Part shown: positions 6,885 to 30,151 of the stretch, piece after piece
Numbering within the stretch: position 1 is the stretch's first letter
Layout: each line of letters begins with the position of its first letter
DNA from: a candidate division WOR-3 bacterium
GTDB lineage: Bacteria; Hydrothermota; Tepidihabitantia; Tepidihabitantales; DTDR01
DNA length: 30,438 nt
NCBI GenBank assembly: GCA_039801885.1
Contig: JBDRVN010000016.1
Span: 1-30,438, forward strand
Direction of reading: 5' to 3'
Translations under genes and position numbers: made by a program
Notes under the pieces: generated by a model
What the model was told of the DNA's origin: nothing
The model's input: only the letters and a program-made list of their open reading frames with translations
Database searches by the model: none

Positions 6885-9383
6885 ATGCGAAAAATTCTAA
6901 TTATCTTTCTATTTTCTTCATTTATTTTTGGGAAAAATTTTGAAGAGTTTCTTATTGATAATACACTTATTTATGGTCCAGCACCGGATAATCAATCTTC
7001 ACCGGCAATTGCTTTTGATGGAACAAATTATTTTATTGTTTGGGCCGATAATCGAAGCGGCTCTTTAGATATTTTTGGTTCAAGAGTTTCTCAAAATGGG
7101 GTTATTTTAGATACCTCGGGAATTCCTATTTCCACTGCAATCTATGACCAATCTTCTCCTCAGATTGCTTTTGATGGCAACAATTATTTTGTTGTTTGGG
7201 AAGACCATCGGAAGAGCGTTTCTGATATTTATGGTGCCCGAGTAACTCCAGAAGGAAGGGTTTTGGACCAAGAAGGAATTTGTATTTCTCGTAATAATGG
7301 TTGGCAGACAAGACCGGTAATAACCTTTGGCGAGAATACTTATCTTGTCGTTTGGATAAGAAATTTTGACGAAATTTTTTGTGCCCGAGTGAATAGAAAC
7401 GGAGTTGTTTTAGATACCAATGGAATTCCTATTTCACCGTTATCGGAAGTACAAAGTGAACCAGCAGTTGTGTTTGGAGAAAACTTCTTCTTTGTTGTCT
7501 GGGTTGATCTTCGGGAAGATTGTCCACCAGTAAGAATTTATGGTGCTCGGATAGATCTATCAGGAACTGCTTTAGATACGATTGGCTTTCCAATATCAAC
7601 TCCTGACTATTATTTAAGTTCGCCTAAAGTTTCTTTTGATGGTGAAAATTATTTAGTTGTTTGGATAAAAGAAGAAGATCTTTATGGTGTAAGGGTGAAT
7701 AAAAATGGGCAGGTTTTAGATACTGCCGAAATTCCTATTTCAATAAATCCCAATAACCAAGCATCGCCAGCAGTTGCTTTTGATGGCACAAACTATTTAA
7801 CTACTTGGCAAGAGAACGGTCATATTTATGGCTCCCGAATAAGCCCTAACGGAATTGTAATTGATACTGCTGGTTTCATTATTTCAACCATCGCTAATTC
7901 CTCAAATCCATCATTAGTTTTTGATGGAAGAAATTATTTTGTAACTTGGCAAGATACTGCTGATATTTATGGTTCCCGAATAACACCCCAAGGAAATGTG
8001 ATCGATTCTAACGGTATTTGTCTTTCTCTTGGTGTAAATAAACAACTCTCGCCAACAGTTGCTTTTGATGGCACAAACTATTTAGTTGTCTGGCAAGATT
8101 ATCGTAAAGGGATCCCTAATATTTATGGTATCCGAATAGATGAAGAAGGAATTGCTTTGGATTCGGAAGTAATTGAGATTTCCACGGGTTTTAATGAAAA
8201 AAGTTTTCCTGCGGTTACCTTTGGTAGAACAAACTATTTAGTTGTCTGGCAAGAGAAAAGAAATAACTCTTGCGATATTTACGGAACAAGAATTAATCAA
8301 GAAGGTGTGGTTTTAGACCCCGAAGGTATCCCTATTTCTTCAGCACCTCATTGGCAACAATTACCTGCAGTCTCTTTTGATGGCAACAATTTTTTTGTTG
8401 TCTGGCAAGATTATCGAAATTCCCATCCCACAAATTTTAGCGATATCTACGGAGCAAGAGTGAGCCAAAATGGTATTATTCTGGATACTAACGGAATTGT
8501 TATTTCACCCTGGGCGCTATCACAATATTCTCCTTCCCTTGTTTTTGACGGTACAATCTATTTAGTTGTCTGGGAACAACGACGTTATGCTTCTTATGAA
8601 TGCGATATTTGTGGTACCCGAGTATCCCGTTCAGGCAATATTCTTGAACCAAATAGTTTTCCAATCTCTACAATCGGTAATTATCAAAATAAACCTGCGG
8701 TCTCTTTTGACGGTAATAATTTTTTAGTTGTTTGGCAAGATGGTCGCAATGGTTCAACCGATATTTATGGAGCAAGAGTAAGCCGAAGTGTCCAGGTTCT
8801 TGATTCTTGTGGAATACCTATTTCTTGTAATGAAAACTCTTTATATTATCCTTCCCTTACCTTTGATGGCACAGACTATTTAGTTGTCTGGGAAGAACAT
8901 CGACTTTCTACTAACGAATCTGACATCTATGGTGCCAGAATCAACTCCCAAGGTGTAGTAATTGATTCTTTTCCAATCTCTCTCCAATCGGGAAATCAAC
9001 TTTCACCAAAATTAACAAAGGGAAATAATAACCAAATACTCATTGTCTATGCTGGTTGGATTGATTCTATCAATCACAAACCAGTATTTACTTATCGGAT
9101 TTTGGGAAAATTCTATCAATTTACCAACATAAAAGAAAATAAAAATCTAATTATTTTATCTCCTCCACCATTTAAAATCTATCCTAATCCCGCTAATTCC
9201 TATTTTAATATCTTTTTGCCAGAAAATGTTGATTTTTTAAAAATTTACAATATTTCAGGAAGATTGATTAAGAATATAAAAATATCTAATAAAAGAAACT
9301 CTATTCCTCTTTTTGATATTAAAACTGGTATCTATTTTGTTAGAGTTGGTAATTTACAAGGGAAATTAATAATAAGAAAATAA
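6885..9383 (+). CDS. Secreted tandem-repeat (probable double beta-propeller) protein with T9SS type A-like CTD
   Basis: Signal peptide; 13 full plus 1 degenerate ~50-aa repeats (Q..P.VAFDGTNYLVVWQD.R...DIYGARV...G.VLD..GIPIS); C-terminal IYPNP...IYNISGRLIK...GIYFV. Confidence 0.8.
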   Translation: MRKILIIFLFSSFIFGKNFEEFLIDNTLIYGPAPDNQSSPAIAFDGTNYFIVWADNRSGSLDIFGSRVSQNGVILDTSGIPISTAIYDQSSPQIAFDGNNYFVVWEDHRKSVSDIYGARVTPEGRVLDQEGICISRNNGWQTRPVITFGENTYLVVWIRNFDEIFCARVNRNGVVLDTNGIPISPLSEVQSEPAVVFGENFFFVVWVDLREDCPPVRIYGARIDLSGTALDTIGFPISTPDYYLSSPKVSFDGENYLVVWIKEEDLYGVRVNKNGQVLDTAEIPISINPNNQASPAVAFDGTNYLTTWQENGHIYGSRISPNGIVIDTAGFIISTIANSSNPSLVFDGRNYFVTWQDTADIYGSRITPQGNVIDSNGICLSLGVNKQLSPTVAFDGTNYLVVWQDYRKGIPNIYGIRIDEEGIALDSEVIEISTGFNEKSFPAVTFGRTNYLVVWQEKRNNSCDIYGTRINQEGVVLDPEGIPISSAPHWQQLPAVSFDGNNFFVVWQDYRNSHPTNFSDIYGARVSQNGIILDTNGIVISPWALSQYSPSLVFDGTIYLVVWEQRRYASYECDICGTRVSRSGNILEPNSFPISTIGNYQNKPAVSFDGNNFLVVWQDGRNGSTDIYGARVSRSVQVLDSCGIPISCNENSLYYPSLTFDGTDYLVVWEEHRLSTNESDIYGARINSQGVVIDSFPISLQSGNQLSPKLTKGNNNQILIVYAGWIDSINHKPVFTYRILGKFYQFTNIKENKNLIILSPPPFKIYPNPANSYFNIFLPENVDFLKIYNISGRLIKNIKISNKRNSIPLFDIKTGIYFVRVGNLQGKLIIRK

Positions 9384-9385
9384 AA

Positions 9386-10285
9386 CTATCTTTCTAAAAC
9401 TTTATCAACTACTTTTATCAATTCCTCTACTATATTTTTATCTAATTGAGTAATAGCAATTTCTTTTTCCAAATCTTCCTTAAATTTATTTAACTTTTTT
9501 ATCTCTCCTTTTCTTTTTAAAGAATGATATTTTCTCAATATATTAAAATAACCACTCATATCAAGTATTTTTATCCCTTTATTAAAAAGAACTTTCTTTG
9601 CCTCACCTTCAATATTTAGCCACTCCTCCATATATCTTTGATAACCCTCAACCATCTTCTTTATCTTCCTATCAGTTATCGGCTTAACACATCTCTTTCT
9701 TTTTAATTCCCTTTTAAACCATTTTTTAACAATCTTCATAACTTCTGATAAAAAATTAGGAGAAAATGTCTTTAAACCATCTTTATCCGCCTTTTTCATT
9801 AATTTTTCAATAACCTTTTCATTTTCTTTCCCTTCATAAATTCTTAATAAGGAGCGGAAAAACTCTTCACCAAAATTAATATACTTTTCAATCAAATCAT
9901 TAGAAAGATTAAAAGGTAATAAATAATTTCTTATCTTTGCTGCCAGATATTTTGGGAAGCTAATAAATGTTCTTCGCGGATATTTTATTCCTACTAAATA
10001 TCGCTTAGCATCTTTCTCATATTTCTCTTTCTTCTCCTTTTTCCTTAAAATCTTATTCATCTCCCAATCCTCAATCTCTTTAAAAAATTCTGAATAAGAT
10101 ATTTGCAATCCTCTCAAATAATTCAAAATCACCACCAATGAAGGCTCTTTAATCTCACCCCTTTCTAACTTTGAAATATAAGAACCTGTCTTTTTACAGA
10201 ACTTAGTAATATCCTTTATCTTATATCCCCTTAACCTTCTTAAATTTCTTAACAACCTTCCAACAAATTTAGAAAACATAACCAA
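9386..10285 (-). CDS. XRE-family HTH protein with two tandem C-terminal helical domains (possible SIRV2 capsid-like fold)
   Basis: LLRNLRRLRGY.IKDI...SYISKLERGEIKEPSL..ILNYL..L.ISYSEFF is an HTH_3/XRE pattern; very basic. Start is TTG 10285 or ATG 10279. The C-terminal domain call is inference (see findings). Confidence 0.8.
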   Translation of the reverse strand: MVMFSKFVGRLLRNLRRLRGYKIKDITKFCKKTGSYISKLERGEIKEPSLVVILNYLRGLQISYSEFFKEIEDWEMNKILRKKEKKEKYEKDAKRYLVGIKYPRRTFISFPKYLAAKIRNYLLPFNLSNDLIEKYINFGEEFFRSLLRIYEGKENEKVIEKLMKKADKDGLKTFSPNFLSEVMKIVKKWFKRELKRKRCVKPITDRKIKKMVEGYQRYMEEWLNIEGEAKKVLFNKGIKILDMSGYFNILRKYHSLKRKGEIKKLNKFKEDLEKEIAITQLDKNIVEELIKVVDKVLER

Positions 10286-10296
10286 CGAAAAAATAA

Positions 10297-10325
10297 ATGA
10301 TAGAATAATAAAGATAAAAAGTCAA
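10297..10325 (-). promoter_or_regulatory. Putative sigma70 promoter of the HTH gene
   Basis: Minus strand TTGACT(10325-10320)-17 nt-TATCAT(10302-10297). Confidence 0.55.
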
Positions 10326-10386
10326 ATAAAAAGTATTCTAAACTAAATCAATTAAATTCTTAAAATATGAAAATTTTTGACTATTT

Positions 10387-10543
10387 TATAACTCCTTATT
10401 TTTCAATAACTTACCTCACTTTCCCAGTTTCCTGTATGGAAACTTTTTATTTGGCAGAAATTTTATATAAGTATTTGAAATTTATAGGCTTAAATCAAAT
10501 TACCACTTCGGATAGGGGGCTATATACTATACCACCTTGGATA
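10387..10543 (+). repeat. Dispersed 157-bp modular repeat, copy 1
   Basis: Gapless match to the reverse complement of 29995-30151, with identical blocks AGTTTCCTGTATGGAAACT (10426-10444), TAAGTATTTGA (10468-10478) and GATAGGGGGCTATATACTATACCACCTTGGATA (10511-10543). Confidence 0.9.
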
Positions 10544-10758
10544 CCGCTTAGAAGCCATTTTTATATTTAATTTTGTATTTATTCTTGCCTTTTATTTCTT
10601 AGTAAGTTTTGAATAATTATTTAAAAATTTTATCTTTTACATTATATAATTTATTTCGTTAATTAATTTTAAAAGTTATATTATAGAGAATAAACAATTT
10701 TATCCCGAATTTTATTCAAATTATTTTTAATATATTTATTAGAAGCCCTTTCGGTAGT

Positions 10759-10786
10759 TTGACAGAAGATAAATTTTTATTATAAT
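10759..10786 (+). promoter_or_regulatory. Sigma70 promoter of the rnf operon
   Basis: Consensus TTGACA(10759-10764)-16 nt-TATAAT(10781-10786), 12 nt before the ATG at 10799; no SD. Confidence 0.7.
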
Positions 10787-10798
10787 AATATTCTTAAA

Positions 10799-12157
10799 AT
10801 GTTTAATTTTTTAGCAAAAAATCGGATTAAAAAGTTTTCATTTCCTGGTGGAGTGCATCCGGAAGAAAATAAACATTTTACTGAGAATTGTCCTATAGAG
10901 AAATTGCCTTTGCCAAAAATTGTCTATATACCTTTATCCCAACATACCGGTAAACCAGCAAAACCTCTTTTGAATATTGGTGATAAAGTTAAAACTGGAC
11001 AACTTATTGGTGAAGCCGATGGCAGGATTTCGGCAAATATCCATTCTTCTATATCAGGAACAGTAAAAGATTTAAAGGAATTACCCCATCCCCTAACTTT
11101 CTCCAGAGTTTTGACTTATATTATTGAAAGTGATGGCGAAGATATTTGGGATGAAGATATTAAAAAAGATTTTGAAGAGAAAGATTTTAGTAGTGATGAG
11201 ATTATTGAGAAAGTTCATAAAGCAGGAATTGTTGGACTTGGTGGTGCTGCTTTTCCGACAGCAGTAAAATTATCGCCACCAAAAGATAAAGTTATTGACA
11301 CACTTATTATTAATGGCTGCGAATGTGAGCCCTATTTAACTAATGATTATCGCTTAATGGTTGAAAAACCAAAAGAAATAATTTTGGGTGCCTTACTTAT
11401 AAAAAGGGCATTAGAGAAGAATAATAAGAATATCAGATTAATCTTTGGTATTGAAGATAATAAAGAGAAGGCAATAGAGATTTTTAATTCTTATAAGAAG
11501 GATTATAATTTTGAAGTTTCTACTTTAAAAACAAAATATCCGCAAGGAGCAGAAAAGCAGTTGATAAAAGCAATATTGAAAAGAGAAGTGCCAAGTGGCG
11601 GACTTCCTTTTGACGTTGGCGTTGTCGTCCAAAATGTCGGCACTGCTTATGCTTGTTACGAATCCTGTTATTTTGATAAGCCATTATTTGAAAGGGTGAT
11701 TACTGTTTCCGGAAGTGGAATCAAAGAAAAAAAGAATTTACTTGTCCGGATTGGCACACCAATAAAAGATATTGTTGAATATTGTGGTGGTTATATTAGC
11801 GAAATAAAGAAGATAATTTTTGGTGGTCCAATAATGGGAATTGCCATCTATTCCGAAGATATGCCTGTTGTCAAGGGAACTACGGGAATTCTTTTCTTTA
11901 ATGATAAGGATGTTATTTTAGAAAAAGAAAAAGCTTGTATTCGTTGTGGTCGCTGTGTTGAAGCCTGTCCAATGGGACTTTTGCCTTGTGAATTACATAA
12001 ATTTATCCAAAGAAGAGAGCTTGAAAGAGCAAAAGAATATTCTCTTTTAGATTGTATTGAATGTGGTTCTTGTGCCTTTGCCTGTCCGGCAAGAATAAAA
12101 CTTGTTCAATCTTTTAAATTTGGCAAACAAGAGATTATAAAAAAGGAAAGAAAATGA
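10799..12157 (+). CDS. rnfC: Rnf complex subunit C
   Basis: FPGGVHP, PLSQHTG, AGIVGLGGAAFPT, INGCECEPYL, KYPQGAEKQL, two CxxCxxCxxxCP motifs. Confidence 0.95.
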   Translation: MFNFLAKNRIKKFSFPGGVHPEENKHFTENCPIEKLPLPKIVYIPLSQHTGKPAKPLLNIGDKVKTGQLIGEADGRISANIHSSISGTVKDLKELPHPLTFSRVLTYIIESDGEDIWDEDIKKDFEEKDFSSDEIIEKVHKAGIVGLGGAAFPTAVKLSPPKDKVIDTLIINGCECEPYLTNDYRLMVEKPKEIILGALLIKRALEKNNKNIRLIFGIEDNKEKAIEIFNSYKKDYNFEVSTLKTKYPQGAEKQLIKAILKREVPSGGLPFDVGVVVQNVGTAYACYESCYFDKPLFERVITVSGSGIKEKKNLLVRIGTPIKDIVEYCGGYISEIKKIIFGGPIMGIAIYSEDMPVVKGTTGILFFNDKDVILEKEKACIRCGRCVEACPMGLLPCELHKFIQRRELERAKEYSLLDCIECGSCAFACPARIKLVQSFKFGKQEIIKKERK

Positions 12158-14877: not shown

Positions 14878-15875
14878 TTATTATTTCGATTTTACTTTTA
14901 GGTGTTTTAGGAATTTTGATGGCAACAATTTTAACCATCGCCCATAAAAAATTGGCGGTATCTGTAGATGAAAAAGTATCCTTATTAACCAAGGTTTTAC
15001 CAAATGCAAATTGTGGTGCCTGTGGTTATGCCGGTTGTGAGAATTATGCGGAAGCAATTGTCAAAGGAGAAGCCGAACCAAACCGCTGCACCGTTGGCGG
15101 AAAAGAGGTAGCAGAAAAGATTGGTGAAATTTTAGGAATAAAAGTGGAAGCAAAAGAGAAAATGGTTGCAGTATTAACCTGCCAAGGCGGCATTGAAGAA
15201 TGTAAAGAAAGATTTTTTTATGATGGCCATTTAGATTGTAAAGAAGCAAATATTATCCACCAAGGAATGAAAGCCTGTCCTTTTGGCTGTTTAGGATTAG
15301 GAACCTGCGTTAATGTTTGTCCTTTTGATGCAATAAAGATTGATAAAAAGAAAAGATTGCCGGTAATTGATGAAAATAAATGTACCGGTTGTGGTATCTG
15401 TGTAAAAGAATGTCCAAAAGGTGTTTTAAAACTTATTCCCAAAACAAAACTTGTTTATCTTGCTTGTATCTCACCGGATAAAGGAAAAGAAGTAAGGGAA
15501 ATTTGTAAAGTTGGCTGCTTTGCCTGCGGAATATGTGTCAAAGTTTGTCCTTATGATGCCTTAAAAATGGAAAAAAATTTACCGGTTATGGATTTTGAGA
15601 AATGTACTGATTGTGGCATCTGTTATCAAAAATGTCCAACAAAATCTTATGTTGATAAAGTAAAGAAAAGACCTTATGCTTTAATCGATACCACTTGTAA
15701 CGGCTGTGGTGAATGTGTAAAAGTTTGCCAATTTAAAGCAATTGAAGGAAAACCTGGTGAAAGACATAAAGTAATAATTGAGAAATGTGTTGGTTGTGGC
15801 GAATGTTTCCGGGTTTGTCCAGTTAAAGCAATCACAATGGTTGGTGCCTTGGGTTATACCAAAAAAGAAGTATGA
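14874..15875 (+). CDS. rnfB: Rnf complex subunit B, long polyferredoxin form
   Basis: TM anchor, LPNANCGACGYAGC, CPFGCLGLGTC, multiple CxxCxxCxxxC ferredoxin motifs up to the C-terminus. Confidence 0.93.
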   Translation: MIIISILLLGVLGILMATILTIAHKKLAVSVDEKVSLLTKVLPNANCGACGYAGCENYAEAIVKGEAEPNRCTVGGKEVAEKIGEILGIKVEAKEKMVAVLTCQGGIEECKERFFYDGHLDCKEANIIHQGMKACPFGCLGLGTCVNVCPFDAIKIDKKKRLPVIDENKCTGCGICVKECPKGVLKLIPKTKLVYLACISPDKGKEVREICKVGCFACGICVKVCPYDALKMEKNLPVMDFEKCTDCGICYQKCPTKSYVDKVKKRPYALIDTTCNGCGECVKVCQFKAIEGKPGERHKVIIEKCVGCGECFRVCPVKAITMVGALGYTKKEV

Positions 15876-18257: not shown

Positions 18258-21200
18258 ATAATCTTCTTTTTTATCTTTTCATTCTCTTGCGTAAGGATAA
18301 TATAGTAAATTCCGTTAGGTAATTTCCTCTGCCAGTTTTTCTCAATCTTGCCTTCAAAAATCTTTTTACCAGCGATCTCATAAATAGTTAACTTTAGATT
18401 ATCTTTTGGATTTAAAAGAAACTTACCTTTCTGAATTGTTGGAATAGTTTTTGGATTTATCTTTTTAGCAAGAGAAATATATTCTTTTACTCCGATATAA
18501 CCGATAGTATCGGTAGTAAATTTAATCGCTCGACCAGCAACAATTGGAGCACAAGCACGATGATAAGTATTATTATACAAGGCATTTATACCAATCATAT
18601 TTGTCTGATCTTCAATACCAACAGTATTTGATGTATAATTATTGGCAGTAAGATATTGGAAAATTATTTCGTTATCACCGGTATAAGTCCTCACTGTTGT
18701 ATCATAGATAATTATCTGAAACTTATCCCAAGATGCCCTTGGATTATAATAATGAACACTGTCCCATTCTAAAATCATTCGATGATTTAAGGTATCATAA
18801 TAGAACCAAACGCCATTTCCTTGAGGAGGATATAAATCATCCCAATTAACACAAATCATCGCACTCGGATTTGTTGATGTCGGGTCAGGCAACGGCTGAT
18901 TAGTATACACAGTTGATGTTGTCCTTATTGGACTTGCCCAACCATTACCACAAACTGATAAAGAATCGCTATACCTTACTCCGTAATAATAAATCGGAAA
19001 TAATAATGGTATCCTTATTGTCTGATCATCAGAAGTTATTGGTAATCTTGCACCAACACCTCTAATTTCAACCCATTCAAATCGTGGACATTCAACATAA
19101 AAACTATCAATATCATCGTATGCCCAATATCTTATTGGTGAAGCATTATCCGGTATCGGATCAGTAATCCTTAATTCACCAACGACAATTGTTAAATAAC
19201 AAGAAAATAGATAGTTATCCGAATAAATTCTTAAACTACAAGGAATTGGTGTCTCTGGTGGAATATTGGGTAAAGTTTGAACAACAAATTTATCTTGATT
19301 ATTAAACTTAGTTGAATCTTTAAAAATTGTATCATAAGTCCCAATTGAATCTAAAACAATTAGCCTTTCATCAAGAGATTTTAAAATAGCGTAGACGTTA
19401 TAACCATTACCAAGTCCTTGGTTTTTTATACCAATTGTTAAAGAAGATATCTCATTTGGATCAAGTCTACCATTATTATTTCCACCTGGTGGCGAATCAT
19501 AAACAACAATTTCCCGATTAACTAAAATTGGTGTACCAACATATAAGGTTAATCTTGATTCCCAAATCGAATCTAAGGTATCTTCAATAGAAAAAACCAA
19601 AGGAATTGAATAACCGTTGGGAAGATTTTCGGAAACCCGAATATTAAACCCATCTTCACCAGTAAATACAGAATCAAAAGGAGCAATGGAAGAAAAATAT
19701 TTAAAGGAATCTAAGATAACAACATTGGTATCAGGTTGTCTTAACCTTAAATAAATTTTTACCCCTTCAACTTCGTAATCGTTATAATTCTTAAACCAGG
19801 TTGGTATCTCAACCTCTTCGCCAGGATTTAATATTCTATCACCATTTCCCATCGGCGGTTCATCAATTAAATAATGAGCAAGATATCTGACTCCTGTTCT
19901 TGGTCTTAATTGAATACCACCAGTAATTACTACTGAATAAGGTTGAGGAATAGAAGTAACAACATTTTGTGCCATTATTTTTAAATTCCATCTTCCCAAT
20001 TCCGGTTGATTAATCCTAAATACTTCTAAGGGATTTATGTTATCGTATGGCTGAGTAGGATTTTGAACAGATTGACCATTTTGATAAATATTTCCTTTAT
20101 AAAAATTACCTGATGGTGAAGTCAACAAAACATCTAAATTGTTAATCAATGCTGGATTAGCACCTGGTGCGGCAGCAGTATCAGTCCAAACAACGGCTAT
20201 TCTTAAAGGAATGTTATCATTCACTTCAAATTCATACTCCACATATTCACCAGTTCTTAAACCAATTGTATCGTCATATAAAAGAAGTTTTCTTCTATCA
20301 GGAATTGGTTGAGCAAAATATAAAACAGAATCAATATTTACCCTTCCCCAACCAACATATTCTGAAGGAATAACATAATTTCCGATATTTGGATCACAAG
20401 AAACAATTAAACAGGCTTTTACTAAGGAAGCAGAGATATAGGGGAAAGAATCATCGGGATTAGGAACACCAGAAGGATAAAAACCTCTTTTTAGATAACT
20501 TCTAATAAGTCCACAAGCACCATTCACTGCTGGTGCGGCCATACTTGTTCCACTCATATCAATATAACCATTTTGAGTACCCCTTTGGGCAGAATAAATG
20601 AGCTCTCCTGGCACACAAACATCGGGTTTAATTCTTCCATCAGGCGCTGGTCCGCGAGAAGAATAACTTGATAAAACCGTAGAATTTAAACCATTTTGAA
20701 GTGAGCCACAAGCAATTATTGATTTGGAATTTCCTGGTTCGGTTATCCGATATTGAGTAGATTGTCCCTGATTGCCACAAGATTTTATAATTATCACATC
20801 TTTATTTAACCAAGAAAATATATCAACCGAAGCACTGGCATTGGTATATTGTCCCATTGTTCCTGTCCACCAGGAATTAGAAATAGTATATACTTTTAAC
20901 TCAGGATTTCTTAACCAATTTGTCATCTTATTAAAAGGACCTGTCAAATCCCAACCAGTTGGTTGCGGAATTGGTGCCAATATACCAATTCTTGCTCCTT
21001 TGGAATGACCATCGTTAGGATTTGTTCCGCCCATTAAAGAATCGTTTCCACCAATTGTTCCGCCAACATGGGTTCCATGACCATCGGGATCAGAAGGTGC
21101 TAAATAGGTCTCCCAATTTTTAAAGAATACTACTTTTCGATGATTAGGATATTCACCTGTATCAGGAATAGAAACATTTGGATCAAAAAATGCCCAATGT

Positions 21201-25770: not shown

Positions 25771-25844
25771 TGCGGGGTGGAGCAGCCTGGTAGCTCGTGA
25801 GGCTCATAACCTCAAGGTCGTGGGTTCAAATCCCACCCCCGCTA
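25771..25844 (+). tRNA. tRNA-Met(CAT), initiator (fMet) type; CCA not encoded
   Basis: TGCGGGGTGGAGCAGCCTGGTAGCTCGTGAGGCTCATAACCTCAAGGTCGTGGGTTCAAATCCCACCCCCGCTA: cloverleaf, CAT anticodon, 1:72 mismatch, A11:U24, TTCAAAT T-loop. Confidence 0.97.
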
Positions 25845-26922: not shown

Positions 26923-29859
26923 ATTCTTTTTATTTTCTTTAAGGTTAATTATATAAATACCTTTGGGAAGTTCTTTCATATCTAAAACAATCTCTTTCTC
27001 TTTTGGTTTTAAACTTTTTACTTTTGAGCCTGATAGATTATAAATTGAAATCTCTTTTTCTTTCTCTAAATTAAGTTTAACTTGGGAAGCAATGATTGTT
27101 AGATAAAAAATTTTTTCTTTTTGATTTTTAAAATCTTGACAGATACAGACAACCTGGGGCCAAACATTGGTAAATCTTATCGCCCTTTCCCTTATTATTC
27201 CCTCCTGGGGATAATTAATTCCAATCGTATTGGTGTAGTCTTCAATTCCAATTGTAGAGGAAGTAAAACCATTTCTTGTTTTGTATTGGAAGAGAATTTT
27301 ATTATAGCCATTGGGACCGGCAACTGTTGAATCATAAATAATCACTTGGAATTTATCCCAAACTTCTCTCGGATTGTAATAATGAACACTATCCCACTCA
27401 ATTATTATCCGGTGATTTAAACTATCATACAAAAACCAAATCCCATTACTTTGAGGCGGATATAAATCATCCCAATTAGGACAAATCATCGCACTCGGAT
27501 TTGTTGATGTCGGGTCAGGTAATGGTTGATTACTATAACTAATTGATGTTGTTCTCATTGGTGTTATCCAGCCATTAGAACATATTGATAAAGAATCATT
27601 ATAGATAACTCCATAATATTTGAAACTAAAGGGCCATTTTATTCTGATTGTCTGGTCATCGTTAGTTATGGGCAATCTTATACCGATATTTCTTATCTCA
27701 ATCCATTCGTATCTTGGACATTCAGTATAAGTAGAACAAGAATTATCATAAGCCCAATAGATATATTGATTATCAGGTATCGGGCAAGTTGCTGTGCCAC
27801 CGCCGGTTTGAATCCTAATATTTACCGAATCTAAATAATTGTTAGCAACCATAATTAGTCTAAAATTTGTCTGCCATCTTGGTGGTGTATTCGGTGAGAT
27901 AAATATCCGTGGGTCTAATGGACCAACTTCTGAATCTGGTAAGATATCACCAAAATAGGTAATTGAATCAATAATAGTAATAAATGTATCACTTGTCCTT
28001 AAAATTGTATATACTGACTCGGCAGTTTCATTTCCCATATTTCTTATTTTAAATAAAAGTGATACCAATTCATTTGGTTCTGCTCTTCCATTGCCGTTAC
28101 CATTTGGTGGAGTATCAATTATTCCAAAAAGAGAAGGTGTTAATAATGGACCAGGAGAAGTATAAGCAACAATCGCATCCAAATCAAAGCCAGCAGTCGG
28201 CGAAGAACTGCCATCACCATCATCAACAATTTTTATATACCGTGCCCAATTTAAACCACTTCTACTTAAATCAAAAGCAGCGGTTCCAGTATCACTTCCA
28301 CAAAAATAGAAAGGACCGTTCCAATTCTGAGAGACATAAACATTATAACCCTCATGGTCATTATCATTCTCATAAACAAAAAAGTCAATTCCTGGTTGAT
28401 TTAAAACCGGTTTTAACACATCAATAACAATCCAACCATTAATTCCCAAAGATATTCTTCGGTCATCAGGATATCCTAATGCCAAGTTAGAAAAACTGGG
28501 AATAACATTGTTATCTCTATGCCTTAACATTGTTGTTATAAAACCAAAATATCTTGGATTAGTATCGGGTGATAATTTAACTTCTAAGAAAATTGCGGTA
28601 TCTTGCGGTGATATAACATTTTCAATAATTTTTGTTTGATAACCAGGCGCCATTATTTTTAAACTATATGTATCGGGTAACAATGGTCTCATAAAATATC
28701 CATCTACTGAATCAGAATATACCGGCCAGAAAGTATCAACTTGAATTAATGCTTTTATCGGTTGATTGGTAAAAGAATCTTTCACCACACCTTCAATTCC
28801 AATTTTAATCTTTATTATCAAATTTTTCATTGCCTGAATTTCTCTATTAGTTATTGGTTCAATTGAATCTGCTGGTGGTGTCTTTATATAACATATTTCT
28901 GTTGTCCAAGATATCGCACCATAAACACCATAGGCATAATCTTTTGAACAGCCGTGAATCTCATACATTCCACGGTAACCTTGGGCATAGGGATAACCCG
29001 TAAAACTTGCATATTCTCGGGCAAAGGTTCCAATTACTAAAGCACTATCAGGTGGTGTAAAAGGTGAATAACTCCAAGGACAAGAAATAAATAATGTTCC
29101 TGCGTGATAAGAAGTCCAATGAGAAAAATGGCATCTTGCTGATAAATTTCTAAATGCCCTTGTCTCTGGTTGGGAAAAGGCATCAGGACTTCCCCAACCA
29201 GTATCCCAAGCATATCCATAATCCCTATTTAAATCAACACCATTAGCATTTTCTCGTGTATTACTAATATGACCATCAGGATTAACAACCGGTGAAATCC
29301 AAATCTCCCTGCTATTTACAATCTGAGTAACCAATGGGTCAACACCATAATTTAATACTAAATATCTCAAAATACCAAAGGCCGCTTCCGAACCAATTTT
29401 CTCATCACCATGGGTATTTCCTTCAATTAATATTTCTGGCTCATATTCTTCTATATCTGGATTATCAGTTATCTTCATCACAACAATCGGTCTATTTTGA
29501 ACTGAGAACCCAATCGTCTCTAATCTACATATGTGAGAAAAATTTATTGCTAAAATATGTAAGGTATCTAAAAATTCCTGATAAGTATGATAACGGGCAT
29601 CAGCAAAATTATCCTCATAATATTTTGTCACATTATAAATCAATATCTCATAATCATAACCCATCTTTTTTATCTCATTCTCTCTTCCGATTGGCACCTC
29701 AATTATTAAATTCCCATCTTGAAAGCCATTAATAACAAAACCTTTCTTATCAAAAAGAAGAATCTTATCCTTCTCAACATTCTTTACCTTTACCAAATGA
29801 TAATATTCCTTAGCATTTAAAACAAAAAAGAAAAATAAAACAATAAATATTTTTCTCAT
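26899..29859 (-). CDS. Secreted M14 zinc carboxypeptidase, multidomain, with T9SS-like CTD
   Basis: HGDE, VNPDG, RENANGVDLNRDY, SQPET, SYHAG, TTEI; carboxypeptidase regulatory-like domain; AGGAGGT SD. Confidence 0.93.
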   Translation of the reverse strand: MRKIFIVLFFFFVLNAKEYYHLVKVKNVEKDKILLFDKKGFVINGFQDGNLIIEVPIGRENEIKKMGYDYEILIYNVTKYYEDNFADARYHTYQEFLDTLHILAINFSHICRLETIGFSVQNRPIVVMKITDNPDIEEYEPEILIEGNTHGDEKIGSEAAFGILRYLVLNYGVDPLVTQIVNSREIWISPVVNPDGHISNTRENANGVDLNRDYGYAWDTGWGSPDAFSQPETRAFRNLSARCHFSHWTSYHAGTLFISCPWSYSPFTPPDSALVIGTFAREYASFTGYPYAQGYRGMYEIHGCSKDYAYGVYGAISWTTEICYIKTPPADSIEPITNREIQAMKNLIIKIKIGIEGVVKDSFTNQPIKALIQVDTFWPVYSDSVDGYFMRPLLPDTYSLKIMAPGYQTKIIENVISPQDTAIFLEVKLSPDTNPRYFGFITTMLRHRDNNVIPSFSNLALGYPDDRRISLGINGWIVIDVLKPVLNQPGIDFFVYENDNDHEGYNVYVSQNWNGPFYFCGSDTGTAAFDLSRSGLNWARYIKIVDDGDGSSSPTAGFDLDAIVAYTSPGPLLTPSLFGIIDTPPNGNGNGRAEPNELVSLLFKIRNMGNETAESVYTILRTSDTFITIIDSITYFGDILPDSEVGPLDPRIFISPNTPPRWQTNFRLIMVANNYLDSVNIRIQTGGGTATCPIPDNQYIYWAYDNSCSTYTECPRYEWIEIRNIGIRLPITNDDQTIRIKWPFSFKYYGVIYNDSLSICSNGWITPMRTTSISYSNQPLPDPTSTNPSAMICPNWDDLYPPQSNGIWFLYDSLNHRIIIEWDSVHYYNPREVWDKFQVIIYDSTVAGPNGYNKILFQYKTRNGFTSSTIGIEDYTNTIGINYPQEGIIRERAIRFTNVWPQVVCICQDFKNQKEKIFYLTIIASQVKLNLEKEKEISIYNLSGSKVKSLKPKEKEIVLDMKELPKGIYIINLKENKKNLKVIKIR

Positions 29860-29889
29860 CTTTACCTCCTTTTATTTTTCATTTCTTAT

Positions 29890-29917
29890 ATTATAGAACA
29901 AAATAGATATTTGTCAA
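29890..29917 (-). promoter_or_regulatory. Sigma70 promoter of the M14 peptidase gene
   Basis: Consensus TTGACA(29917-29912)-16 nt-TATAAT(29895-29890). Confidence 0.7.
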
Positions 29918-29994
29918 TTTGTTTTTAACTATTATCACTTAAAAGACATAAAAATATATTCTAAATTTTTCTAAGAATTATCCATATCAAGGCA

Positions 29995-30151
29995 TATCCA
30001 AGGTGGTATAGTATATAGCCCCCTATCTAACAGGCTGAAATTAGTTAAATTATTAAATCTCAAATACTTACATAAAAATTTCGTAAAATAAAAAGTTTCC
30101 ATACAGGAAACTTTTAAAATTATGTAAGTAACATAAAATCAATAGTTTATA
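29995..30151 (-). repeat. Dispersed 157-bp modular repeat, copy 2 (inverted relative to copy 1)
   Basis: TATCCAAGGTGGTATAGTATATAGCCCCCTATC (29995-30027), TCAAATACTTA (30060-30070), AAAAGTTTCC-ATACA-GGAAACTTTT (30091-30115). Confidence 0.9.

Follow-up and report, generated by a model that had tools for sequence, protein, structure and literature searches.

The subject of this study is an intergenic DNA element found in a 30,438-nt stretch of DNA from a candidate division WOR-3 bacterium (hereafter the window), where it occurs at 10387-10543 (+), as copy A, and again in inverted orientation at 29995-30151 (-), as copy B. The element is one member of a dispersed non-coding family whose unit of about 170 bp combines palindromic motifs and a G-rich block at near-invariant spacing. 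Copy A lies directly upstream of a gene for an XRE-family helix-turn-helix (HTH) protein, and a paralogue of that gene is preceded by a module of the same geometry, which has orphan copies of its own. Judging from these sequence comparisons, we favour, with roughly even confidence, the reading that the element would be a composite protein-binding DNA module cognate to XRE-type regulators that has been copied to orphan loci. The genome that holds the window (G000, contig C16) comprises 1.55 Mb in 70 contigs, has 31% G+C and is 91% complete; the 15 sequencing runs behind the source DNA all carry a hot-spring metagenome label except for one coded organism, and there is no RNA run among them.

Anatomy and fixed spacing of a dispersed repeat family

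Copies A and B form the longest inverted pair that an inverted-repeat search finds in the window (157 nt, 75% complementary, ungapped), and both are intergenic. A preliminary description of this DNA had aligned them without gaps and had divided them into a box A, a 19-bp palindrome, a box B and a 33-bp block; that alignment is borne out, with zero gaps between the copies from the palindrome, here called hairpin HP2, to the end of the G-rich block (MAFFT), and all four landmarks can be located in the sequence. Box A of copy A, placed earlier at 10387-10414, is delimited by family alignments to 10389-10413 (+) and is an imperfect 25-bp palindrome of the form TAAGT-N15-ACTTA, degenerate here. HP2 (AGTTTCC-TGTAT-GGAAACT) lies at 10426-10444 (+), with its core TTTCC-N5-GGAAA at 10428-10442 (+); it is followed by the T-run TTTTTATTT, with which the feature ends at 10453, and it is terminator-like in a consensus scan. 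The palindrome is indeed identical in both copies, as had been stated, but the identical stretch around it is longer than had been given, since the identity continues through TTTTTATTT. Box B, a 25-bp palindromic box of the form TAAGT...CTTA at 10468-10492 (+), begins 25 nt after the HP2 core and ends 18 nt before the G-rich block. The block, GATAGGGGGCTATATACTATACCACCTTGGATA, occupies 10511-10543 (+), has a weaker conserved tail to 10556, and is the same in both copies, 10511-10543 being the reverse complement of 29995-30027 with 0 mismatches; its opposite strand reads ...CCCCCTATC. In copy B (-) the block lies at 29995-30027, box B at 30046-30070, the HP2 core at 30096-30110 and box A at 30125-30149. 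Read on the strand opposite to that used in the preliminary description, the layout is a C-rich block, 18 nt, a box, 25 nt, TTTCC-N5-GGAAA and often a second box.

Family alignments show that boxes A and B are two versions of one 25-bp motif, TAAGT-N15-ACTTA, and that box A is optional, being recognisable in about 8 of the 12 copies of the G000 genome. The outer three pairs of box B are constant in 33/33 copies, and the inner 5-bp arms of HP2 in 31-33 of the 33, with a variable loop between them. The G-rich block is exact in 3 copies and has no more than 3 mismatches in 6; within it ATAGGGG[GA]CTAT is near-invariant, the family pattern as a whole being GATAGGGGGCTAT.TA.TATA..CCTTGGA.A, and in genomes G002 and G003 it makes a longer palindrome, ATAGGG-N7-CCCTAT.

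With copy A alone as query, nhmmer retrieves copy B (E = 8e-14), a similarity well outside what chance would give, and ten other copies (E = 7e-26 to 3e-8), that is, 12 copies in the G000 genome at E <= 3e-8; iterated profile searches add partial copies on contigs C27 and C46. The placement of two copies 19.5 kb apart in inverted orientation, which the preliminary description had noted, is therefore incidental, since the element is a 12-copy dispersed family. All five congeneric genomes contain matches (3-18 each); across other genera of the order (35 genomes, 20 genera) there is one weak partial match of 33 nt. A scan of metagenome contigs for the block motif returned 11 stretches, namely 10 full or partial copies and 1 weak partial match; the same scan returned 2 matching stretches in genome contigs and none in viral contigs.

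What sets the family apart is its spacing. The distance from the start of HP2 to the start of the block is 84 nt in 11/11 full copies of G000 and in 41 of the 43 distinct copies that carry both motifs at all loci, those on 10 metagenome contigs included; the two exceptions (83 and 82 nt) both come from G002, the most divergent congener. Five further block matches without a nearby HP2 comprise a contig-end truncation, a 42-nt deletion, the copy on C12 and two other loci. An alignment of 33 copies has 0 gapped columns between HP2 and block at a mean pairwise identity of 76% over the 123-nt core, so that the earlier observation of spacers diverged in sequence and preserved in length holds family-wide. 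The length constraint is both real and local, because at two loci orthologous between G000 and G003 the core is intact while the stretch that separates the element from the next promoter has gaps of 34 and 56 nt; one of the copies at these loci lacks half of box A. The earlier conclusion that the pair is no recent duplication and that its spacing is constrained agrees with this picture: orthologous copies sit beside flanking genes that are only 77-88% identical, and core length is kept amid surrounding indels of 34-56 nt. Most copies occupy orthologous loci between G000 and G005, G003 or G001. The 42-nt deletion mentioned above affects the orthologue of copy B in G005 (locus L074, contig C9), where the whole hairpin was lost between two TTAC direct repeats and the remainder was kept.

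Linkage to an XRE-type gene and a parallel module at its paralogue

The HTH gene at 9386-10285 (-) encodes 299 aa (Pfam HTH_31) and is transcribed away from copy A; a putative promoter, TTGACT-17-TATCAT, with 10/12 consensus matches, lies at 10297-10325 (-), between the gene and box A. The element is found directly upstream of this gene, and reversed relative to it, in G000, G003, G005 and G002, which are all four of the genomes that can be assessed, meaning those in which a contig end does not cut the locus. In G002 the opposite flank of the element at this locus is a different gene. The HTH gene thus has palindromic sites upstream of it that are conserved together with it, as is expected of an operator of an XRE regulator.

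A paralogous HTH gene, present in each genome of the genus, lies on G000 contig C4 at 28258-29133, and its product is 42% identical to that of 9386-10285. Upstream of it are a hairpin (...CCCTATC), a box that shares 24/25 positions with the box B of another copy, and a palindrome of its own, TTGCAT-N3-ATGCAA, that abuts the -35 site; this layout of block, box and palindrome by the -35 is conserved in 5/5 genus genomes checked, G000 included. In the whole of the G000 genome TTGCAT-N3-ATGCAA occurs only three times, once at the paralogue and twice at orphan sites (contigs C1 and C46), and each occurrence ends a module with the block-18-box-25 geometry (C4 28100-28257, C1 49166-49230 and C46 491-555; hereafter type 2), the three aligning without gaps over about 125 nt. 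When the G000 genome was searched for CC[CT]TAT., 14-22 nt, a box, 20-30 nt and either palindrome, there were 13 matches, 11 of type 1 and 2 of type 2, and all 13 had spacings of exactly 18 and 25 nt. It follows from the shared geometry that the element, when reversed, has the layout of the paralogue's control region, with a different palindrome at its end. After the type 2 module on C46 come a promoter-like site, a ribosome-binding site and a gene for a secreted protein. The paralogue's palindrome changes compensatorily among G000, G003 and G004 (TTGCAT..ATGCAA, TGGCAT..ATGCCA and GTCCT..AGGAC), in contrast to the invariant arms of the type 1 palindrome.

A word-filtered search returned 20 homologues of the regulator at E <= 1e-5, all of them from WOR-3 sources, and these source names place the organism in that candidate division. 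An AlphaFold2 model of the 299-aa protein, built on a 10-sequence alignment, is all-helical, with a mean predicted local distance difference test score of 84 and a predicted template modelling (TM) score of 0.46, and it has a long helical tail rich in lysine and glutamate. In Foldseek comparisons the N-terminal 70 residues align well with XRE domains, the best being C.BclI, C.AhdI, C.Esp1396I and ClgR, with no match for the 299-aa protein at E <= 0.001, and NCBIfam, PHROGs and PADLOC recognise only the HTH part. We make no claim of whole-length likeness to Rgg, PlcR or PrgX, for which the TM score is about 0.2 and the root-mean-square deviation about 24 Å.

The arrangement extends beyond the genus. 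G012 is a genome from a different family of the same order, and homologous genes there have CCCCCTATC, 17 nt and a box ahead of them. When 66 genomes of the order were scanned for a box, 20-26 nt and TTTCC-N5-GGAAA, there were 46 matches in 7 genomes, namely 6 of the genus and G012, against 0 matches for the reversed pattern, and the gap is 25 nt in 44 of the 46, including 7/7 in G012. The G012 spacers are GC-rich and unrelated in sequence to those of the genus; the arms are the same. Since the arms stay constant from the genus to G012 while loops and spacers have been replaced, comparison over such a distance would point to sequence-specific recognition, and not simply to the formation of a hairpin. 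One G012 copy of box, gap and TTTCC-N5-GGAAA lies 14 nt upstream of the -35 site of a gene for an 89-aa HTH homologue, and five others, at contig ends, are near-identical over >250 nt. The HTH gene family also reaches 15-17 matches per genome in G007 and G011, from two other genera, several of them with internal stop codons; two of the G007 copies share a unit of about 1.2 kb, made up of the gene and about 330 nt upstream. Many homologues of the HTH gene in other WOR-3 genera further have, just upstream of the block and box, tandem repeats of a degenerate 12-nt unit (core AATAG or similar) in arrays of up to about 17-25 units; such repeats lie at L117 (G012, contig C87, about 15130-15600), at L129-L146 and at 27950-28120 of G000 contig C4, with no convincing open reading frame (ORF) over them.

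Competing explanations and the weight of the evidence

A transcribed element, either a small RNA or an RNA that acts in cis, has three or four hairpins and is recognised by a protein or works through the G-/C-rich block, seems quite unlikely to us. Four successive palindromes could fold, and in a four-hairpin model of our own 80% of cells pair, compared with 30-52% when the partners are slid by 1-3 columns. Copy B folds better than shuffled sequences (z = -3.75 forward, -2.13 reverse), orientation agrees with neighbouring genes in 27-28/39 copies, and the hairpin with its T-run resembles a terminator. Some small RNAs use a CCCCC motif against ribosome-binding sites, and the CCCCC on the opposite strand of the block resembles it. 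Against this, folding is no better for copy A than for shuffled sequences (z = 0.36 and -0.01), and the RNAalifold consensus is weak (-5.6 kcal/mol forward, -4.2 reverse), with compensatory changes at 0/10 predicted pairs forward and 0/8 reverse. Covariation, which the preliminary description had named as a way of checking the element, supports no base pair: an all-against-all comparison of columns on both strands gives scattered pairs and no helix, and the covariation measures of the four-hairpin model are reached by 69-240 of 500 shuffles. Pair 107-125 of box B is GU in 6 copies and a non-pair in 7, which leaves no strand-consistent wobble tolerance. The earlier remark that the element was not recognised as a known non-coding RNA stands, as the sole Rfam match in the whole window at gathering score is a tRNA at 25771-25844, and at E <= 10 over 10300-10800 there is only a low-complexity chance match to a mitochondrial rRNA model (12.8 bits, gathering score 60). 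Nor is there a consistent sigma-70-type promoter inside the element, though host promoters can match the consensus at 12/12 positions: on neither strand is a hexamer pair conserved across copies, and the reverse-strand TATAGT has become TATAGG in most G003 copies. AT-only stems of 9 bp and a 7-bp stem with 3 G-C pairs would, moreover, probably be weak in a hot-spring organism. Taken together, the comparisons suggest that the conserved property of the element is its sequence rather than a structure. The same hairpin and T-run, present in both window copies on the forward strand of the element, could make it a portable intrinsic terminator cassette that stops read-through from the upstream gene, with the remainder carried along. 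They are the sole terminator-like site in each 700-bp scan (1, compared with 0.2 on average in shuffles), the gene upstream runs in the same direction in 27/39 copies, the element mostly starts 0-260 nt past the end of that gene in the copies tabulated, and the polarity of the A/T-run by the hairpin is kept in G012. This reading nevertheless appears very unlikely, because 12/39 copies, copy A included, are without a co-directional upstream gene, the five near-identical G012 copies carry only CTTTATCC past the hairpin, the G005 orthologue of copy B has dispensed with the hairpin and retained the rest, and the invariant 84 nt to the block, together with the conserved box and block themselves, would be left unexplained. 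The absence of indels might also be put down to a small protein-coding gene of 37-47 codons starting at an ATG in the HP2 loop (METFYF...DRGL.TIPPW...). This frame runs open through the block in roughly half of the family and in both window copies, at 10434-10577 (+) and 29959-30102 (-), where it reads METFYF...DRGLYTIPPW... and has 43-47 codons. The chance of this being the explanation is close to nil, given in-frame stops before or within the block in many of the 37 copies translated (TGA in box B, TAG in the block), the missing ATG in 14/37, the want of codon periodicity (mean column entropy 0.57, 0.73 and 0.58 by codon position, the third not being the freest; permutation p = 0.71) and no Shine-Dalgarno sequence ahead of the ATG.

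That the element is a selfish non-autonomous repeat, akin to miniature inverted-repeat transposable elements (MITEs) or repetitive extragenic palindromic (REP) sequences and spread or homogenised by recombination, is rather unlikely in our estimation; on this account the gene plus module is or was the autonomous unit, and the conserved sites serve mobilisation. It would suit a multi-copy, intergenic, lineage-restricted family, with copies at the ends of contigs in G005 and G012 (short-read assemblies break at the element), the near-identical G012 copies, and the many, in part interrupted, regulator-family genes of G007 and G011. At three loci (L089 on G005 contig C51, L060 on G005 contig C26 and L051 on G003 contig C35) the upstream flank of one G000 copy is joined to the downstream flank of another, which would be due either to copies recombining with each other or to chimeric assembly at the repeat; the element may thus mediate rearrangements. 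One locus is filled in G002 and empty on G000 contig C25, about 265 nt being replaced by about 20 nt; no clean target-site duplication is evident at this single locus, and insertion and deletion are indistinguishable there. Terminal inverted repeats, looked for by inspection of the family alignments (box A or upstream on the left, block or tail on the right), are likewise not seen. An IS200/IS605-type parent was considered and rejected, as PF01797 (Y1_Tnp) and PF07282 (TnpB-type) have 0 matches in the 91%-complete genome; recombinase or transposase Pfam families have 0 matches at E <= 1e-5 among the 71 flanking ORFs scanned (92 listed), with DDE, serine and tyrosine recombinase families not searched genome-wide. 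Movement must also be rare, as most copies are orthologously placed, and neutral decay would not preserve an 84-nt spacing at 76% identity. The preliminary description had not recognised the element as a REP or a CRISPR repeat, and this is borne out: it is not a REP, its palindromes being AT-rich and embedded in a 170-bp unit in a genome with no Y1_Tnp match, and not a CRISPR repeat, its copies being single and on different contigs and the window pair inverted and far apart.

To return to the composite-module reading that we prefer, several observations weigh against it. The pairing of protein with site is drawn from adjacency and from the parallel families of the two paralogues. The distance from TTTCC-N5-GGAAA to the regulator's -35 site is about 17 nt in G003 and about 100 nt in G000, so that the palindrome at the G000 locus would not be a classical promoter-overlapping operator. 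A gene in the regulator-like position, beyond box A and transcribed away, is found at only 12/39 assessable copies, and most orphans therefore cannot readily be taken for promoter-proximal operators. For the C-terminal 220 residues of the protein Foldseek recognises no fold. The T-run after the hairpin, always present and of the same polarity in G012, would suit a terminator as well. The centre-to-centre distances of the palindromes (34, 45 and 41 bp) are not multiples of whole helical turns, which gives no support to the selection on helical phasing that the preliminary description had invoked. G003 copies are closer to each other (0.88-0.90) than to their orthologues (about 0.8); gene conversion, i.e. 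concerted evolution, contributes to this similarity and could maintain it without a function at each locus. Finally, reshuffled flanks and contig breaks would keep the selfish-repeat account alive.

If the composite module is nonetheless what it seems, copy A would be the upstream control region of the XRE-type gene at 9386-10285, whose product, probably as an oligomer, would contact end palindrome, box and block together. The fixed gaps of 18 and 25 nt would be imposed by a protein assembly touching all sites, with indels selected against and the letters of the spacers left free. The end palindrome would set the specificity of each paralogue, box and block being shared parts, and copies without a regulator gene (11/12 in G000, among them copy B) would offer that protein additional places to dock, where it could act on neighbouring transcription or on local chromosome structure. 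The preliminary description had proposed protein-binding, multi-site DNA, and this part finds support in the invariant arms, the zero compensatory changes and the linkage to the HTH gene; its more specific suggestion of a recombination, packaging, loading or origin site does not, as the neighbours are housekeeping genes and no recombinase was found among the 71 flanking ORFs scanned.

Of the flanking ORFs, the 71 that were scanned encode housekeeping or secreted proteins, and the products encoded downstream of the copies are unrelated (rnfC, TldD/PmbA, HsdR, carbamate kinase, CstA, YebC, secreted proteins), for which reason a regulon of downstream genes was discarded. The element was also rejected as the promoter of the genes downstream of it in the window, as rnfC and the gene of a 986-aa peptidase each have a 12-of-12 promoter of their own between element and start codon; these perfect TTGACA-16-TATAAT promoters lie at 10759-10801 and 29859-29917. 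The -10 hexamer of rnfC is only about 12 nt from the ATG, which has no Shine-Dalgarno sequence, and this suggests a leaderless or near-leaderless mRNA. Elsewhere in the window, an 832-aa ORF at 6885-9383 (+) consists of some 13 tandem repeats, whose periods are mostly 144-168 nt (48-56 aa) and each of which closes with a conserved FDG.NYLVVW-like motif, and about 430 nt at 73-80% identity (18693-19129 and 27323-27759) are common to minus-strand ORFs of 1237 aa and 986 aa, the latter being the peptidase, a secreted M14 enzyme.

Relation to known systems and significance

A close parallel is with XRE autoregulatory operators such as the C-boxes of restriction-modification controller (C) proteins, which are palindromic sites upstream of the controller gene. 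The likeness lies in palindromes of fixed spacing upstream of the protein's own gene, here paralogue-specific and next to the -35 site, and in the N-terminal fold, which matches C proteins. The module described here is however larger, at about 110-170 bp, has three or four distinct sites and occurs mostly as orphan copies, and the protein, at 299 aa, has a large uncharacterised helical C-terminal part. Noc with its NBS sites, MatP with matS and RacA with ram illustrate another arrangement, in which one DNA-binding protein serves some 10-70 scattered palindromic sites without a link to promoters. Dispersed palindromes and a protein with a long tail of lysine- and glutamate-rich helix are reminiscent of these systems, whose sites, unlike the fixed arrays of three or four different sites found here, are single palindromes of 13-16 bp.

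Among repeat families, the REPs and bacterial interspersed mosaic elements (BIMEs) of enterobacteria are also dispersed, extragenic and palindromic; they are bound by the host proteins IHF and gyrase and can affect transcript ends. Pneumococcal BOX and Neisseria Correia elements are modular and intergenic, occur in tens of copies and have possible effects on neighbouring transcription, and the present family shares with them its intergenic location and a build in which boxes are present or absent. They have terminal inverted repeats or variable numbers of modules and tolerate length variation, whereas here the spacing is near-invariant and there is a link to a regulator gene. REPs, for their part, are described as short G-C-rich stem-loops (PMC3184786). 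They are tied to RAYT (Y1) transposases, in contrast to the AT-rich, multi-part element of about 170 bp found here in a genome with no Y1 gene. Rigid multi-site geometry and gene linkage thus set the family apart from REP/BIME, BOX and Correia, and size and the predominance of orphans set it apart from XRE operators. Full-text literature searches found no published description of the repeat family or of the regulator, and the main text of the principal WOR-3 genomics paper (PMC12542636), its supplements aside, does not mention repeats, MITEs, XRE or helix-turn-helix proteins, transposition or non-coding elements.

Should the element be merely a selfish repeat, it would still be a new repeat family, of modest interest. 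More tentatively, and as a possibility that we regard as somewhat doubtful, these data may point to an undescribed WOR-3 system in which paralogous XRE proteins of about 300 aa each have their own dispersed family of rigidly spaced three-part modules, made of a shared block and box and a specific palindrome. Copies of the control region would in that case have been seeded chromosome-wide, either wiring new genes to the regulator or anchoring and organising the chromosome, and the network would have grown by the copying of composite operators. If the composite-module reading is right, the family is a natural case of a whole composite operator, 110-170 bp long and not just a short binding site, that was copied to a dozen loci and has stayed intact in several species, and the matched pairs of regulator and site family would make a testable system for target acquisition and for selection on multi-site DNA architecture, while offering a first functional handle on a protein family so far seen only in the uncultured phylum WOR-3.

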